33,698 bases of DNA, from assembly GCA_033763455.1 (NCBI GenBank), contig JANRKO010000068.1, forward strand, positions 1 through 33,698. Direction: 5' to 3'. The translations under genes and the position numbers were made by a program. The first letter of the stretch is position 1. Every line of letters begins with the position of its first letter. Shown piece after piece: positions 7,698 through 25,500 of this stretch. The DNA is from Polyangiaceae bacterium. Lineage in GTDB: Bacteria; Myxococcota_A; Polyangia; Polyangiales; Polyangiaceae. Below the pieces are notes generated by a model. It was not told where the DNA came from. It saw only the letters and a program-made list of their open reading frames with translations, and did no database searches.

Positions 7698-8585
7698 ATG
7701 CTAGCTATGCGCGTACTACTGTTGTTGCCGCTTGGATGTGGTCTTGCGGCGTTAACTACTGGCTGCTCTGATAAGGGGACCTCGGCTCCGACCACGAGTA
7801 GCGGTGGGGCAGCGAGTTCTGGCACCGGTGGCGGCGCGTCTATAGGCAGCGGGGGCAAATCGAGTGGCGCAGGCGGTGGCGCGGCTTCCGGGGGAGCCAA
7901 AGCGTCCGGTGGTAGTTCCGCAGGTGGTAGTTCCGCAGGCGGTAGTGCCAACACTGCTGCAGGGGGGATGAGCGCTGTGGGTGGGAGCGTCGGTAACCTG
8001 GGAGGCACTGGTGGTTCTGCGCCCGCTAACGCGATGACTTTTTTCGTCACGAGTGACACAGCCGCCACCGGGAACTTGGGAGGCCTCGCTGCGGCTGACC
8101 AACGTTGCCAGACTCTTGCGGCTGCGGTAGGGCGTGGAGGCGCCACCTGGCGAGCCTACTTGAGCACCGAGAACCCCGCCGTAAATGCCATCGACCGTAT
8201 TTCCAACGGTCCTTACATCAACTCCAAGGGCGTGACGGTTGCAGCAGACAAAGCAGCCCTTCACGCTCGCGCAGGCGATGCCGAGCTTTTCCTGGATGAG
8301 AACGGCATGAAGATCAACGGGCAGTGGCAAGGTTCCCCAGATCCCAACCAACACGACATCATGACTGGGAGCAACGCCGACGGGAGTGTGAAGGCGGGTG
8401 CAACCTGTGGGGATTGGACATCTGCCGAAGGAAACGTTTCGGTTGGGCACTCCGATGGGCTCGGGCCAAACATGAATCCAGCGCCGCCATACAGTTCCTG
8501 GAATGGTGCCCACAACGGTGACTGTTCGGATCCTAAGCCTTCAGGCGGTGCGGGCCGGATTTATTGCTTTGTCGGCGCCCCCTAA
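7698..8585 (+). CDS. Lipoprotein with Gly/Ser linker and endostatin/DUF1554-like (C-type lectin fold) domain
   Basis: Lipobox LTTGC. The C-terminal domain carries FFVTS..GNLGGLAAADQRCQ..WRAYLS..HDIMTGS..TCGDWTS..IYCF. Confidence 0.82.
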   Translation: MLAMRVLLLLPLGCGLAALTTGCSDKGTSAPTTSSGGAASSGTGGGASIGSGGKSSGAGGGAASGGAKASGGSSAGGSSAGGSANTAAGGMSAVGGSVGNLGGTGGSAPANAMTFFVTSDTAATGNLGGLAAADQRCQTLAAAVGRGGATWRAYLSTENPAVNAIDRISNGPYINSKGVTVAADKAALHARAGDAELFLDENGMKINGQWQGSPDPNQHDIMTGSNADGSVKAGATCGDWTSAEGNVSVGHSDGLGPNMNPAPPYSSWNGAHNGDCSDPKPSGGAGRIYCFVGAP

Positions 8586-10468: not shown

Positions 10469-11368
10469 GTGGTGCACTACGAGTGTAGAAATTGTGGGGC
10501 TGGCCTCACCGTAGAGTCAAATCAGATTGCGGTCGTGTGCACGTTTTGCCGCGATCCTTCGATCATCGAACGTCCACCCAGATCGGACCGACCTCTTCCA
10601 TCATTTTCCCTGGGGTTCGTGATTCAGGAGGGCCGCGCCCAAGCTGCCGCCAATCGACGCATCGCTCGAGCATGGCTTGCGCCCCAGGCGTTTCGCCGCG
10701 CAAGAGCTGAGACTGTCACGGGTGTGTACGTGCCCACGTATCTTTACTCGGCTCACTGTGAAAGTGATTTTAAGGTCGAGATTGGTGAGCAGTACCAAGA
10801 GAGCGAAACCTACACAACGACGGAGAATGGTCGCAGCGTACAGCGCACGCGGACCGTGACGAGCACCGAGTGGTACCCGTTGCGCGGCCGGTATTCGGCG
10901 TACGTGGAACGGGTGGTTTCGGCTTCATCCGGTATCCCGAATCCTGAGCTCGAAGCCATCGAGCCCTTCGATCTACGGGCGTTGCACCGCTTTCGCGCTG
11001 AAACACTCGCTGGGTTTGCGGCTGAAGAAGCAAGCTTGCCAACTGCCACGTGTTGGGCAAATGCTCGCGAGGAGGCGAGCGCTGAGGTGGGGGAGCGCAT
11101 CTCCAAGTTTTTGCCTGGAGATTCCCAGAGATCTTTGGAGCAACGCGTAGACTTTCGGAACGAAGATCTAACCTTGGCCCTCTTGCCGGTGTGGGTGCTC
11201 GCCGTGCGTTACCACCCAGAGCGCCGGGTGGTGCGCATGCTCATCAACGGGCAAACGGGAGCTCTTTACGTGAGAACGCCGATCTCTAAGTACAAAGTTC
11301 TCACCCTAGCAATGGTTGTCATTGGACTGTGCTTTTTGGCGCTTTGGAAGTCAGGAGTCTTTGAGTGA
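10469..11368 (+). CDS. Zinc-ribbon domain membrane-anchored protein
   Basis: CRNCGA...CTFC at the N-terminus, VYVPTYLY, LPVWV...INGQTG, and one C-terminal TM helix. Confidence 0.8.
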   Translation: MVHYECRNCGAGLTVESNQIAVVCTFCRDPSIIERPPRSDRPLPSFSLGFVIQEGRAQAAANRRIARAWLAPQAFRRARAETVTGVYVPTYLYSAHCESDFKVEIGEQYQESETYTTTENGRSVQRTRTVTSTEWYPLRGRYSAYVERVVSASSGIPNPELEAIEPFDLRALHRFRAETLAGFAAEEASLPTATCWANAREEASAEVGERISKFLPGDSQRSLEQRVDFRNEDLTLALLPVWVLAVRYHPERRVVRMLINGQTGALYVRTPISKYKVLTLAMVVIGLCFLALWKSGVFE

Positions 11369-12345
11369 TCCCGCCCTGCACTCGCTGCGGCAGCGAGCTC
11401 GCTTTGGGCGATCTTCGTTGCCCGATTTGCGCCTTGGTTACGCCGCCGGTATCGGTTAAGGGCATGCCACAGGGCGACACCGCGCGCGTCTTTCGCTGCC
11501 AAGGTTGTGGGGCAGCGGTTACCTACGATATTCAGGCACAGGCTCCGGTCTGCGGATTCTGTCGTGCGGTCGTGGCTCTCGAAACACAGGCGGATCCACT
11601 CGAAGAGGCGGAGTATTTCCCCGCTTTTGGCGTGGATTTGGCCATGGCTCGCGCCGCGCTTGAAGCTTGGTGGCGCGTGCCTCGCTTTTTTTGCCCAGGA
11701 GCTCTCTCAAGCTCGGCCATGGTGGAAGATCTAAGGCCCTTGCGCTGGGTGGCGTGGGTATTTGACGTCGAAGCCACGGTAAGCTGGGCGGCGGATTCCA
11801 ACGCTGGTTCTCGGCGGTCGGATTGGGCTCCACACTCGGGTCAGTTCGAAGAACAGTACCAAGATGTCGTGGTGAGCGCTTCTCGCGGGCTAACCCAGTC
11901 CGAAACGCGACAGCTTACCCCATATTATGCATCCGATCATGTATTTGCTCCGAATCCGGATCTGGCAATGGAGTCAACAGCTCTCGGAAAGCCGGTCGTT
12001 GTCGAACGCTTCAATGTTCAACGTTCGGCTGCCCGTAAGCTAACGAGCTTGTCGCTCCAAGCGCTCGCCGAACAGAGCGCAGCCCGGCGTGTTCCTGGAA
12101 CCCGCATGCGCAATCTTAGAGTGGAGGTTGTACCGCGCCGCTTAGTCACGCGCCGCGTGGCATTCCCGGTGTACGTTGCCGCGTATCGCTATAACGGCAA
12201 GCTTTTTCGGGCGATTGTGCACGGACGAAAGGAGGGCTTCGTTATCGGTAGAACGCCGATCGCCTGGTCCAAAGTGGTGCTTTTAGTTCTCATTGCGTTG
12301 GCTCTCTTGGCCGCGCTCATCGTGTCGGTCAGCGGGGCCGATTAG
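11365..12345 (+). CDS. Double zinc-ribbon membrane-anchored protein, paralogous to the upstream gene
   Basis: GTGA start/stop overlap with the upstream gene. It has CTRCG..CPIC and CQGCG..CGFC, FPVYVAAYRY..VHGR and a C-terminal TM helix. Confidence 0.8.
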   Translation: MIPPCTRCGSELALGDLRCPICALVTPPVSVKGMPQGDTARVFRCQGCGAAVTYDIQAQAPVCGFCRAVVALETQADPLEEAEYFPAFGVDLAMARAALEAWWRVPRFFCPGALSSSAMVEDLRPLRWVAWVFDVEATVSWAADSNAGSRRSDWAPHSGQFEEQYQDVVVSASRGLTQSETRQLTPYYASDHVFAPNPDLAMESTALGKPVVVERFNVQRSAARKLTSLSLQALAEQSAARRVPGTRMRNLRVEVVPRRLVTRRVAFPVYVAAYRYNGKLFRAIVHGRKEGFVIGRTPIAWSKVVLLVLIALALLAALIVSVSGAD

Positions 12346-12377: not shown

Positions 12378-13013
12378 CTACTCGCCCAGCTGGCAAATCC
12401 CGTTCCGGAGGGCGAACTTGGTAAGGCCGGCGACACTCTTTACGCCCAATTTCTGGGAAATTCGACGGCGATGAGTGTCCACGGTTGTCACGCTCAAGGA
12501 TAGTGCTTGCGCTATCGCGCGGGAGCTCTTGCCCTCTGCCAAGGCTGCCAACACTTGCGCCTCACGCGCGGATAGCGCGGCGTGAGTTGTGGTTTCCACA
12601 CGACTGGCGTAGCTACGAAGCACGAGATCCGTTATCGATTGACTGGCGAACGTCCGCCCTTGGGAAACAACGCGAATGGCAGTGAGGAGCTCCTCAAACG
12701 TCGAATCCTTGGTGACGTACCCAGTGGCGCCTGCCTGGAACATTGCGCCCACGAATGCGCCGTCCCTATCAAGCGAAAAAGCTAGCACGTGAGTGCTAGG
12801 GCATTTCTGCCGAATTAGTGCCGTGGCCTCGATGCCGCTCATACCGGGCAACCCTATATCTGTCACCACCACGCTCGGCTGCAGCTCTTCGACGCACGCA
12901 AGCGCTTCTTCACCACTTCGCACATCGCCAACTACGTCAATGCCTTCGGAGATAAGCAGCGCCTTCATGCCTTGCCTCAGAATTTCGTGACACTCAATAA
13001 GTAAAACCCTCAT
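12378..13013 (-). CDS. NarL/FixJ-family response regulator (REC + LuxR HTH)
   Basis: VVTDIGLPGMSG phosphoacceptor, GATGYVTK, and LSAREAQVL..TVDTHRRRI..KLG. The start may be ATG 13013 or TTG 13019. Confidence 0.93.
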   Translation of the reverse strand: MRVLLIECHEILRQGMKALLISEGIDVVGDVRSGEEALACVEELQPSVVVTDIGLPGMSGIEATALIRQKCPSTHVLAFSLDRDGAFVGAMFQAGATGYVTKDSTFEELLTAIRVVSQGRTFASQSITDLVLRSYASRVETTTHAALSAREAQVLAALAEGKSSRAIAQALSLSVTTVDTHRRRISQKLGVKSVAGLTKFALRNGICQLGE

Positions 13014-13253
13014 ATCCAATCTCCACTCACCGCATTCAATCTATCCGCGGCAATCGTCATGCGCGCCGCTGATCACATCTACCGAGTATTCCTAGATTTC
13101 GGAGCATCACTCGCTTCGTCAATCAGCCCATTTGTGGCACCCCAATCAGGCTAGCCGATGCGGCTAGCCCACTTGAGTCGTATTAATTATTTTTTGTCCG
13201 TGCCGACTACATGCTTGGCAATCGCAGGCATCACTTGAGGGAAGGTTGTAAGC

Positions 13254-15455
13254 ATGAGCGAGACGGAAGAAGTAATTAAGGAGTTCCTTGTTGAAAGCTG
13301 TGAAGGCCTGGATCGGATCGATGCCGATCTCATCGCGCTCGAGGATGACACTGCTCCCGGCCCACGCATTGCGAACATTTTTCGAACCATTCACACCATC
13401 AAGGGAACCTCGGGATTTTTGGCCTTTCCTGGTGTGGAGGCGATTGCTCACGCTGGGGAGAATCTGCTCAGCCGCTTGCGCGACGGCGCCCTGTTGCCGA
13501 ATCCCGAAATCATCGCCGCACTGCTTGCGATGGCTGATGTGCTCCGGGGACTCTTGTCGAACATTGAAACTTCAGGGCACGAAGGAAACGCAGAGCACGA
13601 AGCGTTATTGGCGCTCCTCTCACGACTGGCAAACGGTGAAGCCACAGCTAGCGCTGCTGGTGATCCTGCGGAGAACCTCGCTCAGCCTGCTGAAAGACGT
13701 GCGGATTTTATTGAGCTTTCCGCTGGGGTGCCCGAGGACCCTGAGACCGTCAAAGAACCTCTCGAAGAGGGCCGATCCCCTACCCTCACTGACGCTACCA
13801 TACGTGTGCAGGTGGGATTGCTCGACAAGCTGATGAACCTCGTCGGCGAATTGGTGCTCGCTCGCAACCAGATATTGCAATTCGCGGCTGCAAACGATGA
13901 CGCAACCCTGCTGGGCGCGACGCAGCGCCTCAACCTTCTCACCACCGAGCTGCAGGAAGGGATCATGAAAACGCGAATGCAGCCGATCGGAAGCATCTGG
14001 AACAAGTTCCCACGGGTGGTCCGAGAGCTGGCACGTGCCTGCAAGAAGGAGGTCATTCTTGAAATGGTGGGGAAGGACACTGACCTTGATCGCTCGATCA
14101 TTGAGGCAATTAAAGACCCCCTAACGCACATTGTCCGTAACTCCATCGATCATGGGATTGAGAAGCCCGCGCATCGCGTGGAGGTTGGCAAACGCCGCGA
14201 GGGGACCCTGAGGTTGCACGCCTTTCACGAAGGGGGCAAAGTTAACATCGAAATTAGTGACGATGGCGGTGGGATTGATCCGGTGAGGGTCCGGGCGAAA
14301 GCCATTGAGCGCGGAGTCATCACTGCCGAGCGAGCCGTCCGCATGAGCGACCGCGAGCTCATCAACTTGATCTTCCTTCCTGGGTTCTCAACGGCCGAAG
14401 CGGTATCCAATGTCTCCGGGCGAGGCGTCGGAATGGACGTCGTGCGGACCAACATAGAACGCATTGGCGGCACCGTTGATCTTCAGAGTGTTCCTGGCGC
14501 GGGTGCTACGGTGCGGATCAAGATCCCGCTGACGTTGGCGATAATCCCAGCACTGATCGTGACGGCGGCCGGTGAACGATACGCGATTCCACAAGTGAGC
14601 CTCGTCGAGCTGGTGCGGCTCGACGGCTCCGAAAGTCGTGGTGGAATTGAGACCATTCATGGCACCTCATTGCTCAGATTGCGTGGCAACCTGTTGCCTC
14701 TTGTCTACTTGGGGGAATTGCTGGGTGATGGCCCTCATTCAGGCGACCAGACGGAGATCAATGTCGTCGTTTTACAATCTGACGAACGCCGCTTTGGCCT
14801 CGTAGTGGATGGGATCATCGACACCGAAGAGATCGTCGTGAAGCCCCTTGGGAAAGAACTCAAGCGCGTTACGGCCTTCGCGGGTGCAACTATCATGGGG
14901 GATGGTCGCGTTGCGCTTATTCTGGACGTTCTTGGCATCGCGCAAAGTGCCAACGTTATATCCGAATCGCGCGACCGAGCACTCAAGACGGGTACCCAGA
15001 TAGCACAGGCCACCGAGGATCATGCCGAAGCGCTGCTTCTGTTCCGTACGACCGATGGCAGACGCATGGCTATTCCGCTCGGCATGGTTGCGCGCCTGGA
15101 AGAGATTTCTTCAGAAGCAATAGAGCGCGCAGGGACCGAAGAGGTGGTGCAATATCGTGGCGATATCCTCCCACTCGTGCGCTTATCTTCTGCCCTCGGA
15201 GGAGCCGCTGACCAAGACACCAAGAATGGGGCCTTACAAGTTATCGTCTACTCCCAAGGCGGCCAGCGCATTGGCCTTGTAGTGGGTGAAATTCTCGATA
15301 TCGGGGAGGAAGCTGTGCGAACGCGCGAAGTGCGCCGAGGGGCAGCGCCGGTGGCGATTGTTCAGGGGAGGGTCACAGAGTTCCTGGACGTGGGCACGCT
15401 GCTGGCGTCGCTCAAGCTGAACTCGGTGACAATGAGCACAGGAGAGATCAACTAA
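13254..15455 (+). CDS. cheA: Chemotaxis histidine kinase CheA (HPt, no P2, dimerisation, HATPase, two CheW-like domains)
   Basis: FRTIHTIKG (HPt His), LMNLVGELVLARNQ, HIVRNSIDHGIE, DDGGG, GRGVGMDVV, and a second CheW-like domain at the C-terminus. Confidence 0.97.
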   Translation: MSETEEVIKEFLVESCEGLDRIDADLIALEDDTAPGPRIANIFRTIHTIKGTSGFLAFPGVEAIAHAGENLLSRLRDGALLPNPEIIAALLAMADVLRGLLSNIETSGHEGNAEHEALLALLSRLANGEATASAAGDPAENLAQPAERRADFIELSAGVPEDPETVKEPLEEGRSPTLTDATIRVQVGLLDKLMNLVGELVLARNQILQFAAANDDATLLGATQRLNLLTTELQEGIMKTRMQPIGSIWNKFPRVVRELARACKKEVILEMVGKDTDLDRSIIEAIKDPLTHIVRNSIDHGIEKPAHRVEVGKRREGTLRLHAFHEGGKVNIEISDDGGGIDPVRVRAKAIERGVITAERAVRMSDRELINLIFLPGFSTAEAVSNVSGRGVGMDVVRTNIERIGGTVDLQSVPGAGATVRIKIPLTLAIIPALIVTAAGERYAIPQVSLVELVRLDGSESRGGIETIHGTSLLRLRGNLLPLVYLGELLGDGPHSGDQTEINVVVLQSDERRFGLVVDGIIDTEEIVVKPLGKELKRVTAFAGATIMGDGRVALILDVLGIAQSANVISESRDRALKTGTQIAQATEDHAEALLLFRTTDGRRMAIPLGMVARLEEISSEAIERAGTEEVVQYRGDILPLVRLSSALGGAADQDTKNGALQVIVYSQGGQRIGLVVGEILDIGEEAVRTREVRRGAAPVAIVQGRVTEFLDVGTLLASLKLNSVTMSTGEIN

Positions 15456-15892
15456 TGCCGACGCAGTTTTGCACGTTCTACGTGGGTGATTTGCTCTTTG
15501 GTATCGACGTCAAAATGGTGCAGGAAGTCATGCGCTACCAAGAGATGACGCGTGTGCCGCTCTCGTCTCCCATGATCCGGGGGCTCATCAACCTAAGGGG
15601 ACAGTTGGTGACGGCGGTAGATATGAGACGGCGTCTTGGGTTACCACCGCTCTCTACCGACCGCTTGCCGATGAACGTCATTATTCGGCGTGAGGAAGAT
15701 GCCGTCAGCGTGCTGGTCGACGAAATCGGGGACGTGATTGACGTGGGCGCAGAGGCCTTTGAACGGCCTCCGGAAACACTCATGGGCGCTGCGCGAGAAC
15801 TCATCCGTTCCGTGTGCAAACTAGAGGGCGCGTTGCTACTCGTCCTCGATGCGCAACAGATAACCGCTTTTGACGCCGTGAATGCGGCATGA
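15455..15892 (+). CDS. cheW: Chemotaxis coupling protein CheW
   Basis: [30 protein letters not shown]. It is coupled to cheA by a TAATG overlap. Confidence 0.96.
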
Positions 15893-15972
15893 GAGTGGCG
15901 AATGTAAGGGGCAGGAAAGCTGAGCAAGTAACCAGGGACAATTTTCAACACAAAGACAAGGAATCAACGAAC

Positions 15973-18015
15973 ATGGCAAGCACAACAGAAATTGGACATA
16001 GCAGTTTGTACGAGCGTTTGGGTGGAGCACCAGCAATCAGAGCAGCCGTGGAGAACTTCTACGAACGTGTGCTGGATGACTCAGAATTGAGCCGATTCTT
16101 CGAGGGTGTGGATGTTTCCCGCCTCAAGGCCCATCAAGCCATGTTTCTCACCGCAACCCTAGGGGGTCCGAAGAAGTACCACGGAGCCGCGATGCGCGAA
16201 GCGCACGAGCATCTTGCAATCGACGATGCGACGTTTGATCGGGTGGCCAGTCACCTCTCTGAAACCCTGCGGGGGCTGGGAATTGAGCCCGGGCTGTTGG
16301 GTGAAGTGATGGCGGCCGTTGCCTCTTTGCGACCGGAGATTGTGTCTCAACGCAAGCGCAGCAATGGCAATGGCAATGGCAATGGTAATGGTCACAAGAA
16401 CGGTGGCAACGGCAATGGCAGTGTTCGCCCGGGGACCTTCGCGTCGCTACAGACCGAGGAGGAGCGCATCGCTCGTGACCGAGCGATCGCCATTACGGAG
16501 AACGTCCCCATCAATGTAATGTGCGCAGATCTTGACCTGCGTATTACGTATGTGAACCCGGCGTCGCTGAGGACGCTGAAGACGATTGAAGCGCACCTGC
16601 CTGTGCCGGCAGATCGTATTCTCGGTTCGAGTATTGACATCTTCCACAAGAATCCCTCGCACCAGCGCAGAATGCTCGCGGATCCGCGCAATCTGCCGCA
16701 CCATGCGGTGATTCAGGTGGGCCCAGAAACGCTGGACCTCTTGGTTTCGGCGCTCCTGGACGCGCAGGGACGCTACGTGGGCCCGATGGTCACCTGGAGC
16801 GTGATCACCGAGCAGCAGCGCCGCGCCAAGGAGCTCGCGCGGGTGATGAGCATTGTGGAAAATGCGCCGATCAACGTGATGTGTACTGATCTTGACCTCA
16901 ATATCACCTATGCGAATCCTGCGTCCAAGAAAACCCTCAAGACGCTTGAACAATTCTTGCCAATTCGAGTCGATCAGTTGGTGGGATCCAACATCGACAT
17001 TTTCCACAAGAATCCTGGCCACCAACGCCGCATGTTGGCAGATCCCAAAAACCTGCCGCACAAGGCACTCATTCAAGTAGGCCCCGAGACGCTCGACCTT
17101 TTGGTGAGCGCCATGACGGACGACAAAGGGACTTACCTTGGACCGATGGTCACCTGGTCCGTTGTCACGGAAAAGCTCCGTTTGGAACAGGAGATTGGAC
17201 GTAACGCGAGCCTCCTAGCTGCTTCTTCCGAGGAGCTGAGCTCGGTTAGCCAGCAGATGAGTTCCAACTCAGAGGAAACGGCGACGCAGGCCAATGTGGT
17301 TTCCGCAGCTTCTGAACAGGTGAATAAGAACATCCAGACGGTAGCCAATGGCGCGGACGAGATGAGTGCTAGCATTCGAGAGATTGCCAAGAACGCCAAC
17401 GATGCGGTGCGCGTAGCCGTAGAGGCGGTGCGCGTCGCGGAGACAACGAATACGACGGTCAAAAAGCTGGGAGAGAGCAGCGTAGAAATTGGCAAAGTGA
17501 TTAAAGTAATCACCTCCATCGCCCAACAAACCAACCTGCTAGCGCTGAATGCCACCATTGAGGCGGCTCGGGCCGGTGAGGCAGGCAAGGGCTTTGCGGT
17601 GGTTGCCAATGAAGTGAAGGAGCTCGCTAAGGAAACAGCTAAAGCTACCGAAGATATTAGTCAGAAGATCGAAGCTATTCAGCGCGATACCCGGGGGGCC
17701 GTGGACGCTATTAGTACGATTAGCACGATCATCAATCAGATCAGTGACACACAGAACACGATTGCGAGCGCAGTGGAGCAGCAGACCGCTACCACGAACG
17801 AGATTGCACGCAACGTAGCTGAGGCCGCTAAAGGCAGCGCTGAGATTTCTGAGAATATCGGTGGAGTCGCCAAGGCCGCAGCGGAAACGACCCAAGGCGC
17901 CAACGATACGCATCGAGCAGCCGCGGAGTTATCGCGCATGGCGGCAGAGCTTCAGACCCTCGTGGGGCAGGGCACTGATAAGACACCTCAAGGCGGGAGG
18001 CCGTCGCGGCGCTAA
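15973..18015 (+). CDS. Soluble methyl-accepting chemotaxis protein: group-I truncated (2/2) hemoglobin, two Aer2-type PAS domains, MCP signalling domain
   Basis: Globin: LYERLGG..FYERV..FF..AHQ..FL..LGGP..MREAH. PAS motifs, twice: [11 protein letters not shown]..MVTW. Hairpin tip: [34 protein letters not shown]. No TM helix is present. ATG 15973 follows AAGGAA; the ORF track starts at 15889. Confidence 0.94.
16363..16419 (+). repeat. In-frame hexamer microsatellite (AATGGY) encoding an Asn-Gly linker
   Basis: AATGGC x3 then AATGGT x2, followed by degenerate copies. It encodes [19 protein letters not shown]. Confidence 0.85.
16498..17169 (+). repeat. Tandem PAS-domain duplication with 360-bp (120-aa) period
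   Basis: The ENxPINVMC...[23 protein letters not shown]...[14 protein letters not shown]...[10 protein letters not shown] unit starts at 16498 and again at 16858. Confidence 0.92.
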
Positions 18016-18031
18016 GCTGCACTGATCCAAC

Positions 18032-18403
18032 ATGCGGGCATTAGTTGTTGACGATTCCAAGGCAATGAGAATGATCCTGCGGAACGCTCTGCAAGAAGCT
18101 GGGTTCGAGGTCCTAGAGGCCGAGCATGGCCTCTCCGGACTTGAGCGACTCAAAGAAGTGGGCAGTGTGGATTTGGCCACCGTGGACTGGAACATGCCGG
18201 AGATGAATGGGCTCGAATTCGTGAGTGCGGTGCGAGCGAACAACGCCCACTCCGGCATGATTCTCATGATGATCACCACGGAAACCGAATTTGAGCAGCT
18301 TGAGCAGGCGATGCAGGCGGGAGCCAATGAATACTTGATGAAGCCGTTCACCCGGGACCTCCTGCTTGGCAAGCTGAGTATCCTGGGACTGCGGGCAGGC
18401 TAG
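18032..18403 (+). CDS. cheY: Single-domain response regulator CheY
   Basis: VVDDS, VDWNMPEMNG, MITTE and YLMKPF, located inside the che operon. Confidence 0.93.
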   Translation: MRALVVDDSKAMRMILRNALQEAGFEVLEAEHGLSGLERLKEVGSVDLATVDWNMPEMNGLEFVSAVRANNAHSGMILMMITTETEFEQLEQAMQAGANEYLMKPFTRDLLLGKLSILGLRAG

Positions 18404-18405
18404 CC

Positions 18406-19515
18406 GTGGCCAAGGGCCGGGTGCTTATAGTGGACGATTCCGTGGTGGTCCGGCGCCTTTTGTCGGACGTCATCACGGAGTCGAGTGAGCTTGTAGTGGC
18501 AGGAATTGCCGCCAACGGCAGGATTGCGCTCGGTCGCATCCCACAAGTGAATCCCGACATTGTCGTGCTGGACGTAGAAATGCCCGAACTCGACGGCCTG
18601 CAGACGCTGGTGGAAATTCGGAAGCTGTATCCACGGCTGCCCGTTGTCATGTTCAGCTCCCTAACCGAACGCGGTGCGGCCACCACGTTGGAGGCCCTCA
18701 CAGGCGGTGCCAGCGACTACGTGACCAAGCCTACCTCGCTCGGAGGACAAGGTTCCGCGTCCGACCAAGTGCGAAGCCAGTTGATCCCCAAGCTGCTCGC
18801 ACTTTGCGGCAACCGGGTGAAGGTGGACGCCCCAAGCGCCCGCCCGTTCCCCACCTTGGGCGCGCCGCAACGTGCGATCCTGTCACCGGTGGAGATTGTT
18901 GTAATAGGCACGTCCACCGGGGGGCCGAACGCTCTCGGGGAGTTGCTTCCGCGGCTTCCAGCGGACTTCCCAGTTCCGATTTTGGTAACTCAACACATGC
19001 CGCCCATGTTTACCCGGCTGCTCGCGGAGCGTTTGAACTCAAAGTGCCAGCTCGCCGTACGCGAAGCGCAGGCCGGAGAGCTGCTTGCGCCAGGAACCAT
19101 TTGGATCGCCCCAGGGGATTTTCACCTAGGCCTTGAACGCAGTGAATCTGAAACGGTGCTGACAATCAACCAGGACCCACCAGAGAACGGCTGCCGCCCG
19201 GCAGTTGACAGCATGTTTCGATCGGCAGCCGCGCTCTATGGTGGTAAGATGCTCGCGGTGGTGCTGACAGGCATGGGCCAGGATGGGGCCCGGGGGGCAG
19301 AACAGATTCGAGAGTTGGGTGGCCAGGTGTTCGCCCAGGACGAGGAAACATCGGTCGTCTGGGGTATGCCTGGAGCGGTCGTTCGCAATCAGCTTGCGCA
19401 CAAAGTGCTGCCGCTCCAAGCCATGGCACAAGCGATTTGCGACGCTGTCAGTCTTTCCCTCAAGAGGGAATCGCCAGTCAGCGCAAACAGGAGCGAGCTT
19501 GCCAATGGACGCTGA
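18406..19515 (+). CDS. cheB: Chemotaxis methylesterase CheB (REC + esterase)
   Basis: LDVEMP receiver, with the catalytic motifs GTSTGG, QHMP and LTGMGQDG all intact. Confidence 0.97.
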   Translation: MAKGRVLIVDDSVVVRRLLSDVITESSELVVAGIAANGRIALGRIPQVNPDIVVLDVEMPELDGLQTLVEIRKLYPRLPVVMFSSLTERGAATTLEALTGGASDYVTKPTSLGGQGSASDQVRSQLIPKLLALCGNRVKVDAPSARPFPTLGAPQRAILSPVEIVVIGTSTGGPNALGELLPRLPADFPVPILVTQHMPPMFTRLLAERLNSKCQLAVREAQAGELLAPGTIWIAPGDFHLGLERSESETVLTINQDPPENGCRPAVDSMFRSAAALYGGKMLAVVLTGMGQDGARGAEQIRELGGQVFAQDEETSVVWGMPGAVVRNQLAHKVLPLQAMAQAICDAVSLSLKRESPVSANRSELANGR

Positions 19516-20335
19516 CACACTCCACTTCGTCCGAGACTTAGTGCGACGGCGTTCGGCGATTGTGCTCGATCACGGAAAGGAATACCTGATTGAGGCACGG
19601 CTTGGCCCGGTGGCTCGTGATGAGGGTTACGATTCGATTGGTGCTCTGGTTGGCGCCCTAAAGACAATGCCTTTCGGCGACTTGCACGGCAAAGTCATCG
19701 AAGCGATGACGACGAACGAGACGTCTTTTTTTCGGGACGTGCACCCTTTCGAGGCCCTCAGACAAATTGTGCTCCCAGAGGTGTTGGCGAAACGCCGAAC
19801 AAGTCGCCGACTGAACATCTGGTGTGGTGCATCTTCCACGGGGCAAGAACCCTACACAATTGCCATGGTGCTTCGGGAGTACTTTCCGGAACTCGTAGAT
19901 TGGCAGGTTAAGATTATCGCGACGGATCTTTCGATAGCTGTGTTGGAGCGAGCCAGGGAAGGGCGCTATCGCCAGCTCGAGGTAAATCGCGGATTGCCAG
20001 CGCATTTCCTGCTCCGTTACTTTGATCGAATTGGCCCCGAGTGGCAGGTGAAGCCAGCCGTTCGAGAACTCGTCGAATTCTGTCCGCTAAATCTAATTGA
20101 GCCCTGGCCCACGATGCCAGAAGTGGCAGTGGTCTTCCTGCGGAACGTTCTCATCTATTTTGACGTCGAAACTAAGAGGCACATCTTGGCGGGGGTGCGA
20201 AAGGTTCTCGCCCCCGATGGCGTGTTATTTCTAGGGGGCGCCGAAACGACAATGAACATCGACCCTAAATTTGATCGCATCGAAGCGACCAAGTCGAGTT
20301 GCTACCGCGTACGCGGCGAATCAAGAGGTGCATAA
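19505..20335 (+). CDS. cheR: Chemotaxis methyltransferase CheR
   Basis: TTNETSFFRD, IWCGASSTGQEPYTIAM, ATDLS, RNVLIYFD and LFLGGAE. The real start is ATG 19505, overlapping the cheB end; the ORF track extends to 19283. Confidence 0.96.
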   Translation: MDADTLHFVRDLVRRRSAIVLDHGKEYLIEARLGPVARDEGYDSIGALVGALKTMPFGDLHGKVIEAMTTNETSFFRDVHPFEALRQIVLPEVLAKRRTSRRLNIWCGASSTGQEPYTIAMVLREYFPELVDWQVKIIATDLSIAVLERAREGRYRQLEVNRGLPAHFLLRYFDRIGPEWQVKPAVRELVEFCPLNLIEPWPTMPEVAVVFLRNVLIYFDVETKRHILAGVRKVLAPDGVLFLGGAETTMNIDPKFDRIEATKSSCYRVRGESRGA

Positions 20336-20784
20336 TGGACTTAAATTCTGCGGACCTGCGTGAAGTCATTGAAACAGTGTGGGTAGCTGCCGTCGGCCTC
20401 GATGTGTTAGGGCCCGAGGGCTCTATTCCGCCGCCGCCGCTGGGCTCCTTTTGCGGTTCCGTCCAAATAACTGGGGCGTATCGGGGCGCGGTAGCGGTGA
20501 GCCTGAGCGAGCGCCTCGCTCGACGCGCCGCGGGCGCGATGTTCGACACCGCACCTGAATCAATCAGCCCTGAGGATCTGAAAGATGCTCTCGGAGAAAT
20601 CGCCAACATGACCGGGGGCAACGTGAAAGCCTTGCTTCCCGGTCCCTCGCAGCTCTCGCTGCCTCAGGTCGTATCGGGTACAGCTTACACCGTCAGCACG
20701 CCGGGCTCGATGATCGTTCAGGAAGTTGCATTTCAGGTGATGGGTGAGCAGATCCTGGTGCACCTCCTCGAAGCAAGAAGTTAG
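20335..20784 (+). CDS. cheX: CheX-family phosphatase
   Basis: VQITGAYRG..DALGEIANMTGGNVKA..LSLP contains the ExxN motif. It is coupled to cheR by a TAATG overlap. Confidence 0.92.
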   Translation: MDLNSADLREVIETVWVAAVGLDVLGPEGSIPPPPLGSFCGSVQITGAYRGAVAVSLSERLARRAAGAMFDTAPESISPEDLKDALGEIANMTGGNVKALLPGPSQLSLPQVVSGTAYTVSTPGSMIVQEVAFQVMGEQILVHLLEARS

Positions 20785-20911: not shown

Positions 20912-22729
20912 GTGCCCGGGGACGCCAACAGCAAACACGCTGAGCCGACAGCAAGCCCCCATCCCTTAGCCACGCCTGAACGCGTCAGTTTGCTAGGAAA
21001 GCTAGCAGAAGCGTCACCCGTTGGCCTTTACTGGATCGAAGCCGGGCGCTGCACTTTCGTGAATCCGGCACTTTGCACCATTACCGGGCTCGCGCGTACA
21101 GCAGCCCTAAGCGGCGGTTGGTATCAAGCGGTTCATCCGGAAGATTTGGCGAGAGCTCGCGCGGAGTGGCTCGCGGCCGCGGGGTCAGGGCAGACATTTT
21201 CGTCCGAATACCGCTGCGTGCATCCTGACGGCCGCATAGTGTGGGTTCTCAGCCAAGCCCGATGCGTTGATAGCGCCAACAGCACTTACGTGGGAACACT
21301 GACCGATATCTCCGCGCGCAAACGCATCGAACAAGTACTGCGTGAGCGGGAGCAACAGCTCAACGCCGCGCAGAGGCTTGCCAACATGGGCAGTTGGGAG
21401 CAGGACCTGAGGACCGATGTTGTAAGTTACAGCGAACAAGTTGCAGCGATTTTTGAGCTCAATTCCGCGGAATTGCCGCCTTCAGAGGCCGGCCTTCTCA
21501 GCCGCGTGCACCCAGAAGATCGGGGGCTCGTGTCTCGAACGCACGCCGAAGCACTCGCGAGTCGGAAACCCTACCGGCTTGAACATCGCCTCCAAATGGC
21601 GGACGGTCGAGTTAAACATGTCGAACGACACGGCGAGCTTGCCTTCGACGAAAGCGGGCAACCAAGGTCGCTGCGTACCACAATTCAAGACGTAACCCAG
21701 CAGCGAAATGCCACGCTGAAGCTGGAGGCAAGCGAGGCTCGCTACCACTCTATGGTTGCAGCGCTCTCCGAAGGCATCGTGGTCTATGAGCAGGGCGGCA
21801 TAGCCACCACCTGGAATCGGGCTGCGGAACACATTTTGGGTTCGCCCGAAGGACCCTTCCAGCTTGTTCCGGTGGGTGCAACCTGGCCCGCATTCCATCC
21901 TGATGGCACCGAATTCACGCGCGAAACCCACCCCATACTTCGAGTGTTGCAGAGTGGGGTTCCCGAAGCCAACGTGGTCATGGGGGTTCATGTAGCCAAC
22001 CACGAACTTAGGTGGCTCACGATCAACGTCGTGCCGATTATCGATCCCGGGAGCGTGACGCCGGTATCGGTCGTCGCCTCATTCGTCGACATCACCGAGC
22101 GCCTCAAAGCCGAGCGCGGTGTCCGGCAGTCTTTGGCTGAAAATCGACTGCTTTTGAGCGAGCTCCATCATCGGATGAAGAACAATCTCCAGGTCGTTTC
22201 GAGCCTACTCAAGTGGCAGGCCGCTCGGACGCAGGACCCAAACGCTCAAGCCTTGTTCGACGAGAGTTACGAGCGGGTTCGGTCCATCGCGACGGTGCAT
22301 CAACTGCTGAGCGCCAACAACCACAACCGGGTCGATTTCAAGTCCTACCTGCGTCTCATGACGGCGGAACTCGTGAGTGCGCATCGCTCACCCGGGCTCC
22401 AGGTCGAGGTCGTTGTGAGTGCGGAAGGAGTCCTTCTTGACATCCGGGAGGCTGTCCCGTGTGGCCTGATCGTCAACGAGTTGGTCACGAACGCTATCAA
22501 ACATGCGTTTCCCATTGGGAGATCCGGCAAAGTTACTATTTCCATGACTTCGAACGCCGAACTGACCATCCTCGAGGTGGCTGACGATGGCGTCGGGCTC
22601 CCCGAAGACGTGGATTTGGACGCTCCCAAAACGTTGGGCCTTACGCTCGTAAAAGCGCTCAGCCAGCAGTTGTCGGCAAGGCTCCACGTCGCGCGCGGGC
22701 ACGGTACGCGCTTCACCCTAACCTTCTAA
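20912..22729 (+). CDS. Soluble PAS x3 sensor histidine kinase of the HisKA_2 (HWE-superfamily) type
   Basis: Three PAS/PAC domains (VHPED motifs), H-box ELHHRMKNNLQ, NELVTNAIKHAF, DDGVG and TLGL. Confidence 0.93.
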   Translation: MPGDANSKHAEPTASPHPLATPERVSLLGKLAEASPVGLYWIEAGRCTFVNPALCTITGLARTAALSGGWYQAVHPEDLARARAEWLAAAGSGQTFSSEYRCVHPDGRIVWVLSQARCVDSANSTYVGTLTDISARKRIEQVLREREQQLNAAQRLANMGSWEQDLRTDVVSYSEQVAAIFELNSAELPPSEAGLLSRVHPEDRGLVSRTHAEALASRKPYRLEHRLQMADGRVKHVERHGELAFDESGQPRSLRTTIQDVTQQRNATLKLEASEARYHSMVAALSEGIVVYEQGGIATTWNRAAEHILGSPEGPFQLVPVGATWPAFHPDGTEFTRETHPILRVLQSGVPEANVVMGVHVANHELRWLTINVVPIIDPGSVTPVSVVASFVDITERLKAERGVRQSLAENRLLLSELHHRMKNNLQVVSSLLKWQAARTQDPNAQALFDESYERVRSIATVHQLLSANNHNRVDFKSYLRLMTAELVSAHRSPGLQVEVVVSAEGVLLDIREAVPCGLIVNELVTNAIKHAFPIGRSGKVTISMTSNAELTILEVADDGVGLPEDVDLDAPKTLGLTLVKALSQQLSARLHVARGHGTRFTLTF

Positions 22730-22751: not shown

Positions 22752-23510
22752 TTATGGGCGTTTCACCGGTTCCGGAGCGTCGTGCCCGGCGAGTTTTCCC
22801 AAGAGCGCAACTTGAGACCGCACGTTGAGCTTGCCGAAAATGCTCTTCATGTGGTTGCGGACCGTGTTGGTGGATAGCCCAAGCTTAACGGCAATATCTG
22901 GGAGAGTGTACCCAACTGCCAACAATCGAACAACATCCCTCTCGCGCGGAGATAACCGTTCCCAATCTTCGGGTGGGAGCCGCGCGACAGACGCTTCTCT
23001 GGATACAGAGTCTACGCCTCTTGCATTCGAACCTTGGCCCACGGCATCCATGCCAACAGCCGACTCAAGCGCCTGCATCGCTTCGAGCATTGCGGAAGTC
23101 TGCTCTCGCGTTTCTCTGAGCAACCGTAGGCTGCGGCCTTTCCACACAGCCGCTTCCACCCGTTGAATCACGTCTTCCGGGGAAACCGGTTTGGAGAGGT
23201 AGTCGACCACACCGAGACGTAGCGCTTCCACCGCGGTGGCGATCGTCGGGATGCCCGTAATGAGGACGGTGGGCACTCGCATTTCTTTGCTCCTCAAGGT
23301 CAACTCCAGGCTCTCGTTGCCCGGCATATTGATATCCGCGACCACGGCGTCGTAAGCAGACACAGACAGCTCCTTTGCCGCAGAATGGCCATCTTTGACC
23401 GCGTTTACGTAAAAGCCGTGGCTTCTTAGGACACCGGATATGCCCTTTAGTACTGCTGGGTCGTCGTCGGCCACTAGCACTCGCCCGCGCTCGGTTTCAC
23501 TGATTGTCAT
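22752..23510 (-). CDS. Response regulator, REC + LuxR HTH (FixJ-like)
   Basis: VLVADDD, ADINMPG, LITG, YLSKP, and LSPRERDV..TVRNHMKSIFGKL. The start is placed at ATG 23510, overlapping the upstream kinase stop. Confidence 0.92.
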   Translation of the reverse strand: MTISETERGRVLVADDDPAVLKGISGVLRSHGFYVNAVKDGHSAAKELSVSAYDAVVADINMPGNESLELTLRSKEMRVPTVLITGIPTIATAVEALRLGVVDYLSKPVSPEDVIQRVEAAVWKGRSLRLLRETREQTSAMLEAMQALESAVGMDAVGQGSNARGVDSVSREASVARLPPEDWERLSPRERDVVRLLAVGYTLPDIAVKLGLSTNTVRNHMKSIFGKLNVRSQVALLGKLAGHDAPEPVKRP

Positions 23511-25500
23511 CGAAATTCTCCTGCGGAGGGCTGGGATGCCCTTGCACCATGTCGCGAGCGTCAAGCCGCTTACGGATGGCGTCCAACAGTACCCCAGCCG
23601 AGATTGGCTTGTCTAAGATAGGTTCGCGGGTGATGCCAGGTCCCAGGTTGGGAAGAGGATCGCCGGAACTCCGTAAGAAGATAACCGGCATTTGTGGGCG
23701 AACTAGATTGAGTTGCTGTACATCCTCGACGCTAAGCGCCATTCGACCCAGCGCCAATTCGGCGAGTAGCAGGTCCACCTTTTCTCCGCTTCTCAGAACT
23801 CGGAATGCAGCGTTGGGGGTGTCTGCTATATGCGTCACGTAACCGTAACTCCCGAGCACTTGCGCAAGAGCCCGAGAGACATCCGTGTCCCCGTCTAGGA
23901 TCAAAATGGCTTCGTTCCCGTGGCGCCTGGCGGCGACAGGCGACTCGTTCTGTTCGCACGTCGCCACTGACTGCGTGAGCGGAAGCAGCACTTCAAGTGT
24001 TGCGCTCTGCCCTGGCTGGCTACAAAGCCGGGCGTCCCCACCGGAATCCCTTGCGAGCATGCGTACGGTGGAAAGCCCGAGCCCTGTGCCAAAACCTCGA
24101 GGTTTCGTAGTAAAAAACGGCTCAAACATCCTCATTGCTACCTCAGGCGTGACGCCCTGGCCGGTATCACTCACCCGCAGCCGTGCGTAAGCTCCTGGCC
24201 TGAGAAGCAGTGGCTCTAAGCCTGCATCACCAAGGCTCACGGCATCGCTCCGGATAACAAGTTCACCTCCAAACGGCATCGCATCGCGACCGTTTGTTAC
24301 CAGGTTCATCAAGATGAGTTCAATGAGGGTTGGATCCACCCGGATTCGTCCTGCACTATCCGAAAGCTCTAATCGAAGAGTGATGTTGCGGGGCAACAGG
24401 TGGCGAAGCAGCGGTTCGACTCCGACAATGAGATCGTTAGTGCTCACGATTTCGAGCCTTTCCGATGCGTGACGGCAGAATCCCAGCAGCTGCCGACAAA
24501 GCGCCGCTCCGCGATCGCTAGCTGCCGAAAGATCGGCGAGGAGCGCCAGTGCCCCCGGGGCCGCACCCACCTTAAGGAGGTATGTGCTGCTTTGAATGGC
24601 GGTTAGCACATTGTTAAAATCGTGAGCTACAGAAGCGGCCAGCCTTCCGACGACCTCCATCTTCTGGGCCTGCGCGAATTGTTCCTCTAGTGCCTTTCTC
24701 TCAGTCACATCGCGGATGCAGGCGGTCAACACCTCGTCCCCTTCTATGATTGCCTTTGAAATAGTTATTTCTGCGGGGAACAGCCCGCCGCCCTTGCGGC
24801 GCCCCATGACTTCTCGGCGCCGAGCCATGACTCGCTCGGTTTCGCCGCCGGCCCTAAACCGTTGAAACTCAAGCTCATGCTGTGCCACATTTTCCACGGG
24901 CAAAAGCTCGCTGAGTGGTTGGCCAAGCATATCCTGAGCTGATGCCTCAAATACGGTTTCGGCGCCTCGATTGAAGGCCGTGATGCGCCCGTCGCTGTCC
25001 ACGCTCACGACTGCATCGTGGCAATGGTCCAGAACGATGCGGGTATGGGCCTCGGCGCGCCGCTGGGCGGCCTCTGCGCGCGCACGCGCCTGGCTGGCTT
25101 GGTGCCGCGACAGAGCCAGGCGCACAGTAACAGCCAGCGACTTGGTCTCAAAGGGCTTGAGTACATAAGCATCAGGTTCGCTGCTCAAAGCTCGAGCCAG
25201 CGTGTGCTCGTCGGAGTGCGCGGTCACAAACACGATGGGCACATCCAGACTCTTCCTAATCTCCACCGCCGCCGCCGCCCCGTCGATGCTCCCGAGAAGT
25301 TGCACGTCCATCAGGATGATGCTCGGCGAAGTGGCGAGTGCCAACTCAACTGTGTCCTCACCCGTTCGCGTTGGCCCCAACACTTGATAACCCAAGTGTC
25401 TGAAGTGTGCACACAGCTCAAGCGCTATGACCGCCTCGTCTTCTGCAATGAGAATGCTAGTGGCTGCTCTATCTCCCTCGTGACCAAGCATCGTCTGCAC
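23497..25500 (-). CDS. Hybrid histidine kinase REC-PAS-HisKA-HATPase-(pseudo)REC
   Basis: N-terminal REC (AEDE, LMDV, LKPF), FixL-like PAS, VAHDFNN H-box, NLVTNGRDAM, DTGQG, EPFFTTK and GTGLGL. The C-terminal receiver has Glu in place of the phospho-Asp (LLAELAL). The start may be GTG 25500 or ATG 25491. Confidence 0.92.
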   Translation of the reverse strand: MQTMLGHEGDRAATSILIAEDEAVIALELCAHFRHLGYQVLGPTRTGEDTVELALATSPSIILMDVQLLGSIDGAAAAVEIRKSLDVPIVFVTAHSDEHTLARALSSEPDAYVLKPFETKSLAVTVRLALSRHQASQARARAEAAQRRAEAHTRIVLDHCHDAVVSVDSDGRITAFNRGAETVFEASAQDMLGQPLSELLPVENVAQHELEFQRFRAGGETERVMARRREVMGRRKGGGLFPAEITISKAIIEGDEVLTACIRDVTERKALEEQFAQAQKMEVVGRLAASVAHDFNNVLTAIQSSTYLLKVGAAPGALALLADLSAASDRGAALCRQLLGFCRHASERLEIVSTNDLIVGVEPLLRHLLPRNITLRLELSDSAGRIRVDPTLIELILMNLVTNGRDAMPFGGELVIRSDAVSLGDAGLEPLLLRPGAYARLRVSDTGQGVTPEVAMRMFEPFFTTKPRGFGTGLGLSTVRMLARDSGGDARLCSQPGQSATLEVLLPLTQSVATCEQNESPVAARRHGNEAILILDGDTDVSRALAQVLGSYGYVTHIADTPNAAFRVLRSGEKVDLLLAELALGRMALSVEDVQQLNLVRPQMPVIFLRSSGDPLPNLGPGITREPILDKPISAGVLLDAIRKRLDARDMVQGHPSPPQENFDDNQ

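Follow-up and report, generated by a model that had tools for sequence, protein, structure and literature searches.

A HAMP-less chemoreceptor joining a group-I truncated haemoglobin to two Aer2-type PAS domains in a Polyangiaceae bacterium

Background

Aer2-type receptors are the main model of haem-PAS signalling. The "Aer2 core" has been defined as a PAS-haem domain, a di-HAMP unit and a kinase-control region; the PAS-haem domains bind O2, the last of them being modulated by the PAS domains upstream, and the N-terminal variants of Aer2 receptors as listed in the same paper on the Vibrio vulnificus protein (VvAer2) include no globin (PMC10107281). Aer2-like features, as described by Ortega et al. 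2020, are the 36H class, PAS-HAMP repeats and a C-terminal pentapeptide that tethers CheR, the last in 96 of 130 receptors (PMC7184735). HemAT follows another plan, in which a 3/3 sensor globin of the Protoglobin family is joined to a signalling domain (PMC13401364, PMC6194562). Here we describe a receptor that shares features with both, encoded in a 33,698-nucleotide stretch of DNA (the window; contig JANRKO010000068.1, positions 1 to 33,698, of the Polyangiaceae bacterium assembly GCA_033763455.1). The gene encodes 680 amino acids, in which a truncated haemoglobin (trHb) and an Asn-Gly linker precede two PAS domains and the signalling hairpin of a methyl-accepting chemotaxis protein (MCP).

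The combination of these domains has been recognised before. Sharma, Parales and Singer (2018) listed the Pfam domains Bac_globin, PAS and MCPsignal together in Corallococcus coralloides Cc_4972 and six other proteins from 8,075 complete genomes, and put such receptors forward as aerotaxis receptors, in silico only (PMC6194562). A 2026 aerotaxis review carries the same receptor as a prediction (PMC13401364), and a 2020 globin review, where it treats chimeric bacterial T globins, gives them for groups II and III only (PMC7475203). An initial interpretation made from the DNA letters alone (the sequence-only reading) knew of no characterised receptor of this design. That still stands for experiment, since our literature searches, which covered the multidomain-trHb literature incompletely, found no experimental work on trHb-coupled chemoreceptors; as a design, however, it has been known in silico since 2018 (PMC6194562).

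Results and discussion

Haem-site residues in the globin and PAS domains

By alignment, the N-terminal domain is a group-I trHb and not a globin of the protoglobin/HemAT type. Pfam places Bac_globin (PF01152) at residues 11-121 (E 5.4e-23; 81.9 bits against a cut-off of 21), and Protoglobin scores 18.7 bits, under its cut-off of 25. Residues 11-126 align without gaps to trHbN of Mycobacterium tuberculosis (1idr/5ab8; E 1.4e-24). Among Protein Data Bank (PDB) chains, cyanobacterial, ciliate and algal group-I globins also matched at 1e-24 to 1e-18, group-II chains, HbO among them, come in at 1e-5 to 6e-4, and no chain titled group III is among the matches listed. In the AlphaFold2 model the globin and both PAS domains are folded; the predicted local distance difference test (pLDDT) averages 78 overall and is 84-91 over residues 11-120. 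Foldseek superposes the globin on 1idr_A with a template modelling (TM) score of 0.88 and a root-mean-square deviation (rmsd) of 0.8 A over 115 columns, at 41% identity. The 1idr alignment identifies the key residues as Y30 (B10), F43 (CD1), L51 (E7), Q55 (E11), L59 (E15) and H78 (F8; codon 16204-16206), and the Gly-Gly hinges as G17-G18 and G64-G65. The helix labels are those we take to apply to this fold, and the PDB titles do name TyrB10 and GlnE11 of trHbN. The receptor globin therefore has the B10 Tyr, E11 Gln, CD1 Phe, F8 His and Gly-Gly hinges of trHbN and other group-I trHbs, but those are stand-alone or multi-unit chains, whereas this one is joined to a chemoreceptor.

Conservation was examined in a set of 121 proteins, namely the receptor and the best 120 of 7960 matches (E <= 1e-5; 8000 candidates scored), in which domains were mapped using the receptor's own domains as queries. 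The 65 globins fused to receptors in this set keep the F8 His and CD1 Phe without exception (65/65 each), and nearly always the B10 Tyr (64/65), E7 Leu (59/65) and E11 Gln (58/65). Judged from this pattern and the alignments, the N-terminal globin very probably binds haem.

The two PAS domains are covered in Pfam by PAS_4 at residues 176-283 and by weaker PAS matches. Only three PDB sequences match them, all from Aer2: 6ceq of Vibrio cholerae (VcAer2), and 4hi4 and 3vol of Pseudomonas aeruginosa (PaAer2). PAS1 matches 6ceq at 1.2e-17 and the other two at 1.4-1.5e-14; PAS2 matches 3vol at 1.4e-18 and 6ceq at 1.5e-18. The haem-His motif aligns to IDVFHKNPAHQR of PaAer2 and MVTW to AVQW, so that both copies keep the haem His and the Trp, as originally proposed. 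At 38-40% identity, the receptor and Aer2 PAS domains have the E-eta His, H-beta Leu and I-beta Trp in common, and the modelled fold superposes on 6ceq_A with a TM-score of 0.84 (rmsd 1.4 A) and on 3vol with 0.76. Of 427 PAS domains in the 121 proteins, 426 have the E-eta His, 425 the I-beta Trp and 393 the H-beta Leu. The Asp of the Aer2 DxT motif is present in 30, and in PAS2 the motif reads V397-x-T399. The best NCBIfam model, NF041847 (Vibrio Aer2), reaches 269.6 bits against a cut-off of 1200 and matches the PAS1-PAS2 region only (model positions 29-299). The two copies are not near-identical, as they had been called: 81 of 120 residues are the same, and at the DNA level the copies agree at 65.7% of positions and at 49 of 120 third codon positions, so that the duplication is an old one.

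Alternatively, one or more of the three domains could be a structural relic that holds no haem, and the receptor could sense a cue other than a gas. Against this, all haem-ligating and ligand-stabilising residues are present and near-invariant in the family, and the globin and PAS domains have 38-41% identity to solved haem proteins, at an rmsd of 0.8-1.4 A. We regard a relic as very improbable; judged from its residues, the protein is very probably a haem-based gas receptor.

A soluble receptor without HAMP

The remaining architecture of the sequence-only reading, a soluble chemoreceptor in which the Asn-Gly linker and two PAS domains lead to an MCP domain, is borne out by Pfam, the PDB alignments, AlphaFold2 and Foldseek, as is the lack of transmembrane and HAMP segments. 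MCPsignal lies at residues 475-640 (E 3.1e-34), and the kinase-control hairpin matches Tsr, TM1143 and PcaY in the PDB through alignments that need asymmetric gaps. Its arms measure about 135 residues each in the model, roughly 19 heptads, and carry methylation-like motifs at residues 416-425 and 598-607. The highest Kyte-Doolittle mean over 19 residues is 1.28, so no transmembrane segment is expected. Pfam detects no HAMP domain in the receptor at E <= 0.01, and in the model the last strand of PAS2 (388-397) leads straight into an unbroken helix (399-533).

The spacing between PAS and hairpin varies across the family in regular steps. Counted from the last I-beta Trp to the tip of the hairpin, which could be done in 112 of the 121 proteins, it falls into heptad-spaced classes of 141 residues (n=30, the receptor included), 148 (5), 155 (22) and 162 (9), with a separate class at 207 (n=28). 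The extra segment of the 207 class gives sub-threshold HAMP matches (11.9-22.3 bits in the four members checked), and P0048 has a HAMP above the cut-off. The receptor is thus a HAMP-less form with the shortest spacing in the family, and the heptad-quantised PAS-to-tip distance offers a natural series for testing helical coupling between PAS and bundle.

These features separate the receptor from both reference systems. With PaAer2, VcAer2 (dual PAS-haem) and VvAer2 (tri-PAS-haem) it shares solubility, PAS-haem domains in tandem and a che operon, but it has VxT for DxT, carries a globin at its N-terminus and lacks the di-HAMP. The C-terminal aromatic pentapeptide x-[HFYW]-x(2)-[HFYW] is also absent, the protein ending in PQGGRPSRR. 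Because the di-HAMP and the pentapeptide are missing, the receptor is no bona fide Aer2. With HemAT and the other globin-coupled sensors of the S family it shares the union of a globin and an MCP signalling domain in one soluble receptor of the aerotaxis type; however, its globin is 2/2 and of group I, and a disordered tether and two PAS domains lie between this globin and the output. The receptor therefore does not count as a globin-coupled sensor of the HemAT kind.

By homology to Aer2, each PAS domain would use its E-eta His (H225, H345) to hold a b-type haem, which would take O2, and possibly CO or NO, with the aid of the I-beta Trp (W275, W395). The signal of PAS2, probably modulated by PAS1 as in the V. 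cholerae and V. vulnificus receptors, would enter the hairpin through helix 399-533 with no HAMP relay in between, and would alter CheA activity in a pathway of the receptor's own, from cheA and cheW through cheY, cheB and cheR to cheX; CheB and CheR would adapt the receptor at Glu/Gln pairs. The trHb haem (H78, Y30, Q55), held on a tether of about 40 residues, would work by proximity and not by in-line allostery. Most plausibly, by dioxygenating NO or capturing O2, it would condition the gas that reaches the PAS haems; reversible docking of the globin onto the PAS array is less plausible. Direct signalling from PAS to hairpin meets one objection, in that the characterised Aer2 receptors all have, to our knowledge, a di-HAMP relay. 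Taken as a whole, this explanation, with haem-PAS gas sensing passed directly to the hairpin and a tethered globin as an accessory, is the one we favour, with some confidence.

Distribution and architecture of the family

The design is not rare. A trHb occurs in 65 of the 121 proteins together with two to six Aer2-type PAS domains, and it is N-terminal in 64 of the 65. Written with G for the globin, P for an Aer2-type PAS and M for the MCP domain, the trHb-bearing architectures are G-PPP-M (42 proteins), G-PPPP-M (12), G-PP-M (6; the type of the receptor), G-PPPPP-M (2), and G-PPPPPP-M, GG-PPPP-M and PPP-M-G (1 each). The proposed "tri-haem" receptor stands at the small end of a series that reaches six Aer2-type PAS domains. 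In the PPP-M-G protein (P0050) the trHb follows the MCP domain, at residues 684-794. Globin-less proteins number 49 of the 121; 48 of them begin with a methionine, and in 47 the first PAS lies within 45 residues of the N-terminus.

In another seven proteins (P0007, P0033, P0058, P0060, P0077, P0114 and P0118) a PF00042 globin takes the place of the trHb at the N-terminus, before the Aer2-type PAS array; their linkers are unconserved too. The best PDB matches of the P0060 globin are the "hemoglobin-like flavoprotein" chains 3wfw, 3s1i and 3ubc, the flavohaemoglobins 3ozu and 1cqx, Vitreoscilla haemoglobin (1vhb) and 6wk3, titled "nitric oxide dioxygenase"; the flavohaemoglobin/Vitreoscilla-type class was checked against the PDB for this one of the seven globins. 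No Protoglobin domain is present in the precomputed Pfam lists of the best 120 homologues, and no PF00042 globin was found in the receptor's own genome.

Relatives are also encoded in at least 542 stretches of species-representative genomes, of which 80 loci were kept. A trHb match is present in 23 of the 80: in 21 it is N-terminal and in frame, in L042 it is partial, and in L027 (6884-8834), from a metagenome-assembled genome (MAG) labelled Rhodospirillaceae, a separate trHb open reading frame (ORF) of 128 amino acids lies 17 bases downstream of a PAS-PAS-MCP gene. In the other 57 loci, with flanks of up to 7 kb, no trHb was detected with the receptor globin as tblastn query at E < 1e-5, leaving L027 as the only split form. 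By title, the 21 loci belong to Acidobacteriota, Verrucomicrobiota, Pseudomonadota, Nitrospirota, Bacteroidota, Myxococcota, Spirochaetota, Planctomycetota and Gemmatimonadota, although the titles are those of MAGs and could be wrong. Among 41 genomes of the window's family and order, a query of the whole globin-PAS1 region matched only the genome of the window itself (G000) and one of the same genus (G002; 73% identity).

The design of trHb and Aer2-type PAS is widespread in uncultured soil and sediment bacteria, and the receptor adds one more member. It resembles the proteins of Sharma et al. 2018 in its three Pfam domains, in being a single cytoplasmic MCP without a transmembrane segment and in its che cluster (PMC6194562). 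It differs in that its PAS domains are of the Aer2 haem type and its globin of group I, whereas the PAS domains were likened in that paper mainly to the FAD-binding Aer; and against the seven proteins counted there, the family found here is large, with two to six PAS domains, a variable globin position and globin swaps (PMC6194562).

Homologues of the globin alone give no measure of how often it is fused to MCPs. A search of proteins returned six, a number set by a word-index limit that is no measure of rarity, and an exhaustive search of the representatives returned 5324 at E <= 1e-3, 1778 at <= 1e-10 and 80 at <= 1e-30, the top 150 being mostly multi-unit globins, so that MCP fusions cannot be counted from it. 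The nearest database relatives of the globin (P0122-P0124; P0125-P0273) include proteins of 442-448 amino acids with protoglobin-like and trHb domains, many multi-unit truncated haemoglobins, the largest of 12 units, and one MCP, P0185, that has three trHb units.

The role of the tethered globin

The tether that joins the globin to PAS1 is rich in Asn and Gly and disordered in the model (pLDDT <50). It contains a tandem repeat of the 6-base unit GCAATG (5.2 copies at 16361-16391 by Tandem Repeats Finder), which encodes (Asn-Gly)n. The database copy of the receptor, P0003, has one NG unit fewer and is otherwise identical; close orthologues retain an Asn-Gly-rich stretch with a varying number of units, and contigs from four metagenome DNA runs that match the gene each break at this repeat, none spanning it. 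Across the family the globin-PAS linker varies from 0 to 285 residues (median 28) and shows no sequence conservation. An in-frame ATG after a Shine-Dalgarno-like word stands in the linker of 12 of 22 other fused loci, for example near 7463 in L007, 1130 in L018, 7415 in L028 and 5951 in L087. Such sites number 14 per 936 linker codons against 18 per 14,194 codons elsewhere in the same ORFs (Fisher p 2e-9, a value that is overstated because the loci share kinship). These linker starts may be either relics of gene fusion or internal starts that yield a globin-less isoform. No internal start codon with a ribosome-binding site was found in the linker of the receptor gene itself.

Phylogeny indicates that the globin has come and gone. 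In a tree built by a quick method from the signalling domain (120 rows, 261 columns), the trHb label has to change 16 times, with at least 8 changes forced by well-supported branches, and the PF00042-globin label has to change 4 times, with at least 2 forced; P0060, with its PF00042 globin, is among the nearest relatives of the receptor's clade. Receptors in this tree have therefore repeatedly acquired, lost or exchanged the globin. The unconserved linker, these tree changes, the C-terminal and split forms, the globin swap and the linker starts in relatives together argue that the PAS-MCP part is autonomous and that the globin is an add-on acting by proximity. We put the chance that the globin is such a proximity accessory at a little short of even; that it is an in-line or docking co-sensor seems distinctly less likely, and that it does something else less likely again.

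One form of the accessory would be a tethered enzyme with no sensing role of its own: an NO dioxygenase or an O2 trap through which gas would be filtered on its way to the PAS haems. Among bacterial globins, NO dioxygenases are best known from the group-I trHbs and the flavohaemoglobin type. The idea follows from the observation that these two unrelated classes, and never a sensor globin, fill the N-terminal place, and that the globin also occurs elsewhere in the protein or even as a separate gene. We put it forward tentatively.

Several observations weigh against an autonomous PAS-MCP receptor with an enzymatic add-on. The conserved haem pocket would suit a co-sensor equally well. At E15, which we take to be the position of the Phe gate of M. 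tuberculosis trHbN, the receptor globin has Leu in place of the trHbN Phe, and the 65 fused globins are divided between Phe (31) and Leu (26). An NO dioxygenase requires a reductase partner, and none was identified for this globin. No nirK scored above the cut-off in the genome, in a search that did not extend to nirS or nor. Some of the globin-less proteins could owe their status to mis-called starts. On a tree of the globins (131 rows, 130 columns) the fused globins cluster, with 11 changes against 43.6 after shuffling, and the fusion was therefore mostly inherited stably and not freely exchanged; the resolution of this tree is too poor to tell one fusion event from several, although at least 2 are forced.

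One rival is an integrated tri-haem sensor, in which the trHb is a third input whose ligand or redox state is relayed to PAS1/PAS2 by docking; this would widen the O2 range or join O2 sensing with that of NO or CO. It would account for the strict conservation of the haem pocket among fused globins, for the N-terminal position of the globin in all but one of the proteins that bear it and for the clustering of fused globins. The O2 binding of trHbN-type globins, presumably far tighter than that of Aer2 PAS domains, would extend the range, and N-terminal domains of Aer2 receptors are described as modulators (PMC10107281). It is harder to reconcile with a disordered tether of such variable length and sequence, with the C-terminal and split-gene forms (P0050, L027), and with globin-less relatives whose PAS array and operon are unchanged. 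In 7 of the 121 proteins the trHb is exchanged for a 3/3 globin of unrelated structure, a swap hard to square with a conserved docking surface. We consider the tri-haem sensor unlikely. Of the two roles originally offered for the globin, the evidence favours an integrated sensor of two chemistries less than a built-in NO dioxygenase or guard.

Gene start, operon context and pathway output

The longest open frame around the gene is 15889-18015 on the forward strand. The gene is taken as 15973-18015 because the orthologues P0008, P0009 and that of the same-genus genome G002 match this start (MASTTEIGH...), all beginning MA(S/N)..., and because the 28 codons upstream lack conservation in orthologues. 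An alternative ATG that overlaps the cheW stop (ATGA) and would add 28 residues (15889-15972) was dropped since this extension is not conserved. The gene is embedded in an operon with the order cheA-cheW-MCP-cheY-cheB-cheR-cheX (Table 1). The CheA of the window has two CheW-like stretches instead of one, and the true start of cheR is probably near 19500, since the CheR_N match begins at residue 81 of the longest ORF. Outside the operon, large ORFs upstream (3895-7635, 7698-8585 and 10469-12345; 1246, 295, 299 and 326 amino acids) have no Pfam match at the thresholds used, and other genes of the window encode an OmpA-domain protein, a DUF1552 protein and a PIN-domain protein.

Table 1 Features of the receptor gene and its che operon
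Feature	Position (strand)	Residues and sites	Basis
cheA (Hpt, dimerisation, HATPase_c and CheW-like domains)	13254..15455 (+)		Pfam
cheW	15455..15892 (+)		Pfam
Receptor gene, trHb-linker-PAS1-PAS2-MCP hairpin	15973..18015 (+)	680 amino acids + stop	ORF, translation, Pfam; start by orthologues
Group-I trHb	16003..16350 (+)	11-126	trHbN alignment, model, Foldseek
Asn-Gly-rich disordered tether	16354..16470 (+)	128-166	pLDDT <50 in AlphaFold2 model
PAS1, Aer2-type	16471..16806 (+)	167-278; E-eta H225 (16645-16647), I-beta W275 (16795-16797)	PDB matches, model
PAS1-PAS2 helical connector	16807..16860 (+)	279-296	AlphaFold2 model
PAS2, Aer2-type	16861..17166 (+)	297-398; E-eta H345 (17005-17007), I-beta W395 (17155-17157), H-beta L376	PDB matches, model
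Kinase-control hairpin	17167..17979 (+)	399-669; helix 399-533, turn 534, helix 535-669	AlphaFold2 model, MCPsignal, PDB matches
cheY, single receiver domain	18032..18403 (+)		Pfam
cheB, receiver and methylesterase	18406..19515 (+)		Pfam
cheR, longest ORF	19283..20335 (+)		ORF listing, Pfam
cheX-type phosphatase	20299..20784 (+)		Pfam

The same context recurs in the family. Genes for cheA and cheW lie upstream in 21 of 24 globin-bearing loci examined, with cheY-cheB-cheR usually downstream; the exceptions without an upstream cheA-cheW are L013 (a 2.8-kb contig), L020 and L027. The genome of the receptor (93.7% complete) contains a second such operon on contig 20, with the order cheA-cheW-[trHb-GAF-PAS-GAF-MCP, up to 1389 amino acids]-cheY-cheB-cheR (receptor ORF at 5432-9601 of L087, which is contig 20 of G000, 56000-70000).

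The pathway may have an output other than swimming, its gas sensing being coupled elsewhere as in the Aer2/Che2 (F7) systems of gammaproteobacteria. A PAS-HisKA_2 kinase (20912-22729) follows the operon, and LuxR-type response regulators flank it (12378-13019 and 22752-23564). Single-domain CheY and CheX phosphatase are typical of motor control, and the operon has both; a flagellin gene lies about 1.5 kb upstream of the paralogous operon. These last findings make a non-swimming output improbable, even though the function of the ancestral F7/Aer2 systems is stated to be unknown by Ortega et al. 2020 (PMC7184735).

Conclusions

The receptor is a compact form (680 amino acids, three putative haems, HAMP-less) of a large family found in Acidobacteriota, Verrucomicrobiota, Nitrospirota, Planctomycetota and other phyla. 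Since the architecture is not new, its value is that of a convenient test case rather than a discovery. It raises the questions of whether a PAS-haem domain can drive a kinase-control hairpin without HAMP, what a trHb does when tied to a sensor, and whether environmental bacteria protect their O2 sensing, or tune it, against NO. The two parallel che operons imply that the organism has two pathways of this dedicated kind, each served by a globin/haem-PAS receptor of its own. If the enzymatic reading of the globin is true, a tethered guard would let the O2 sensor go on functioning where soils and sediments are rich in NO, and the receptor would be the first "self-conditioning" chemoreceptor.

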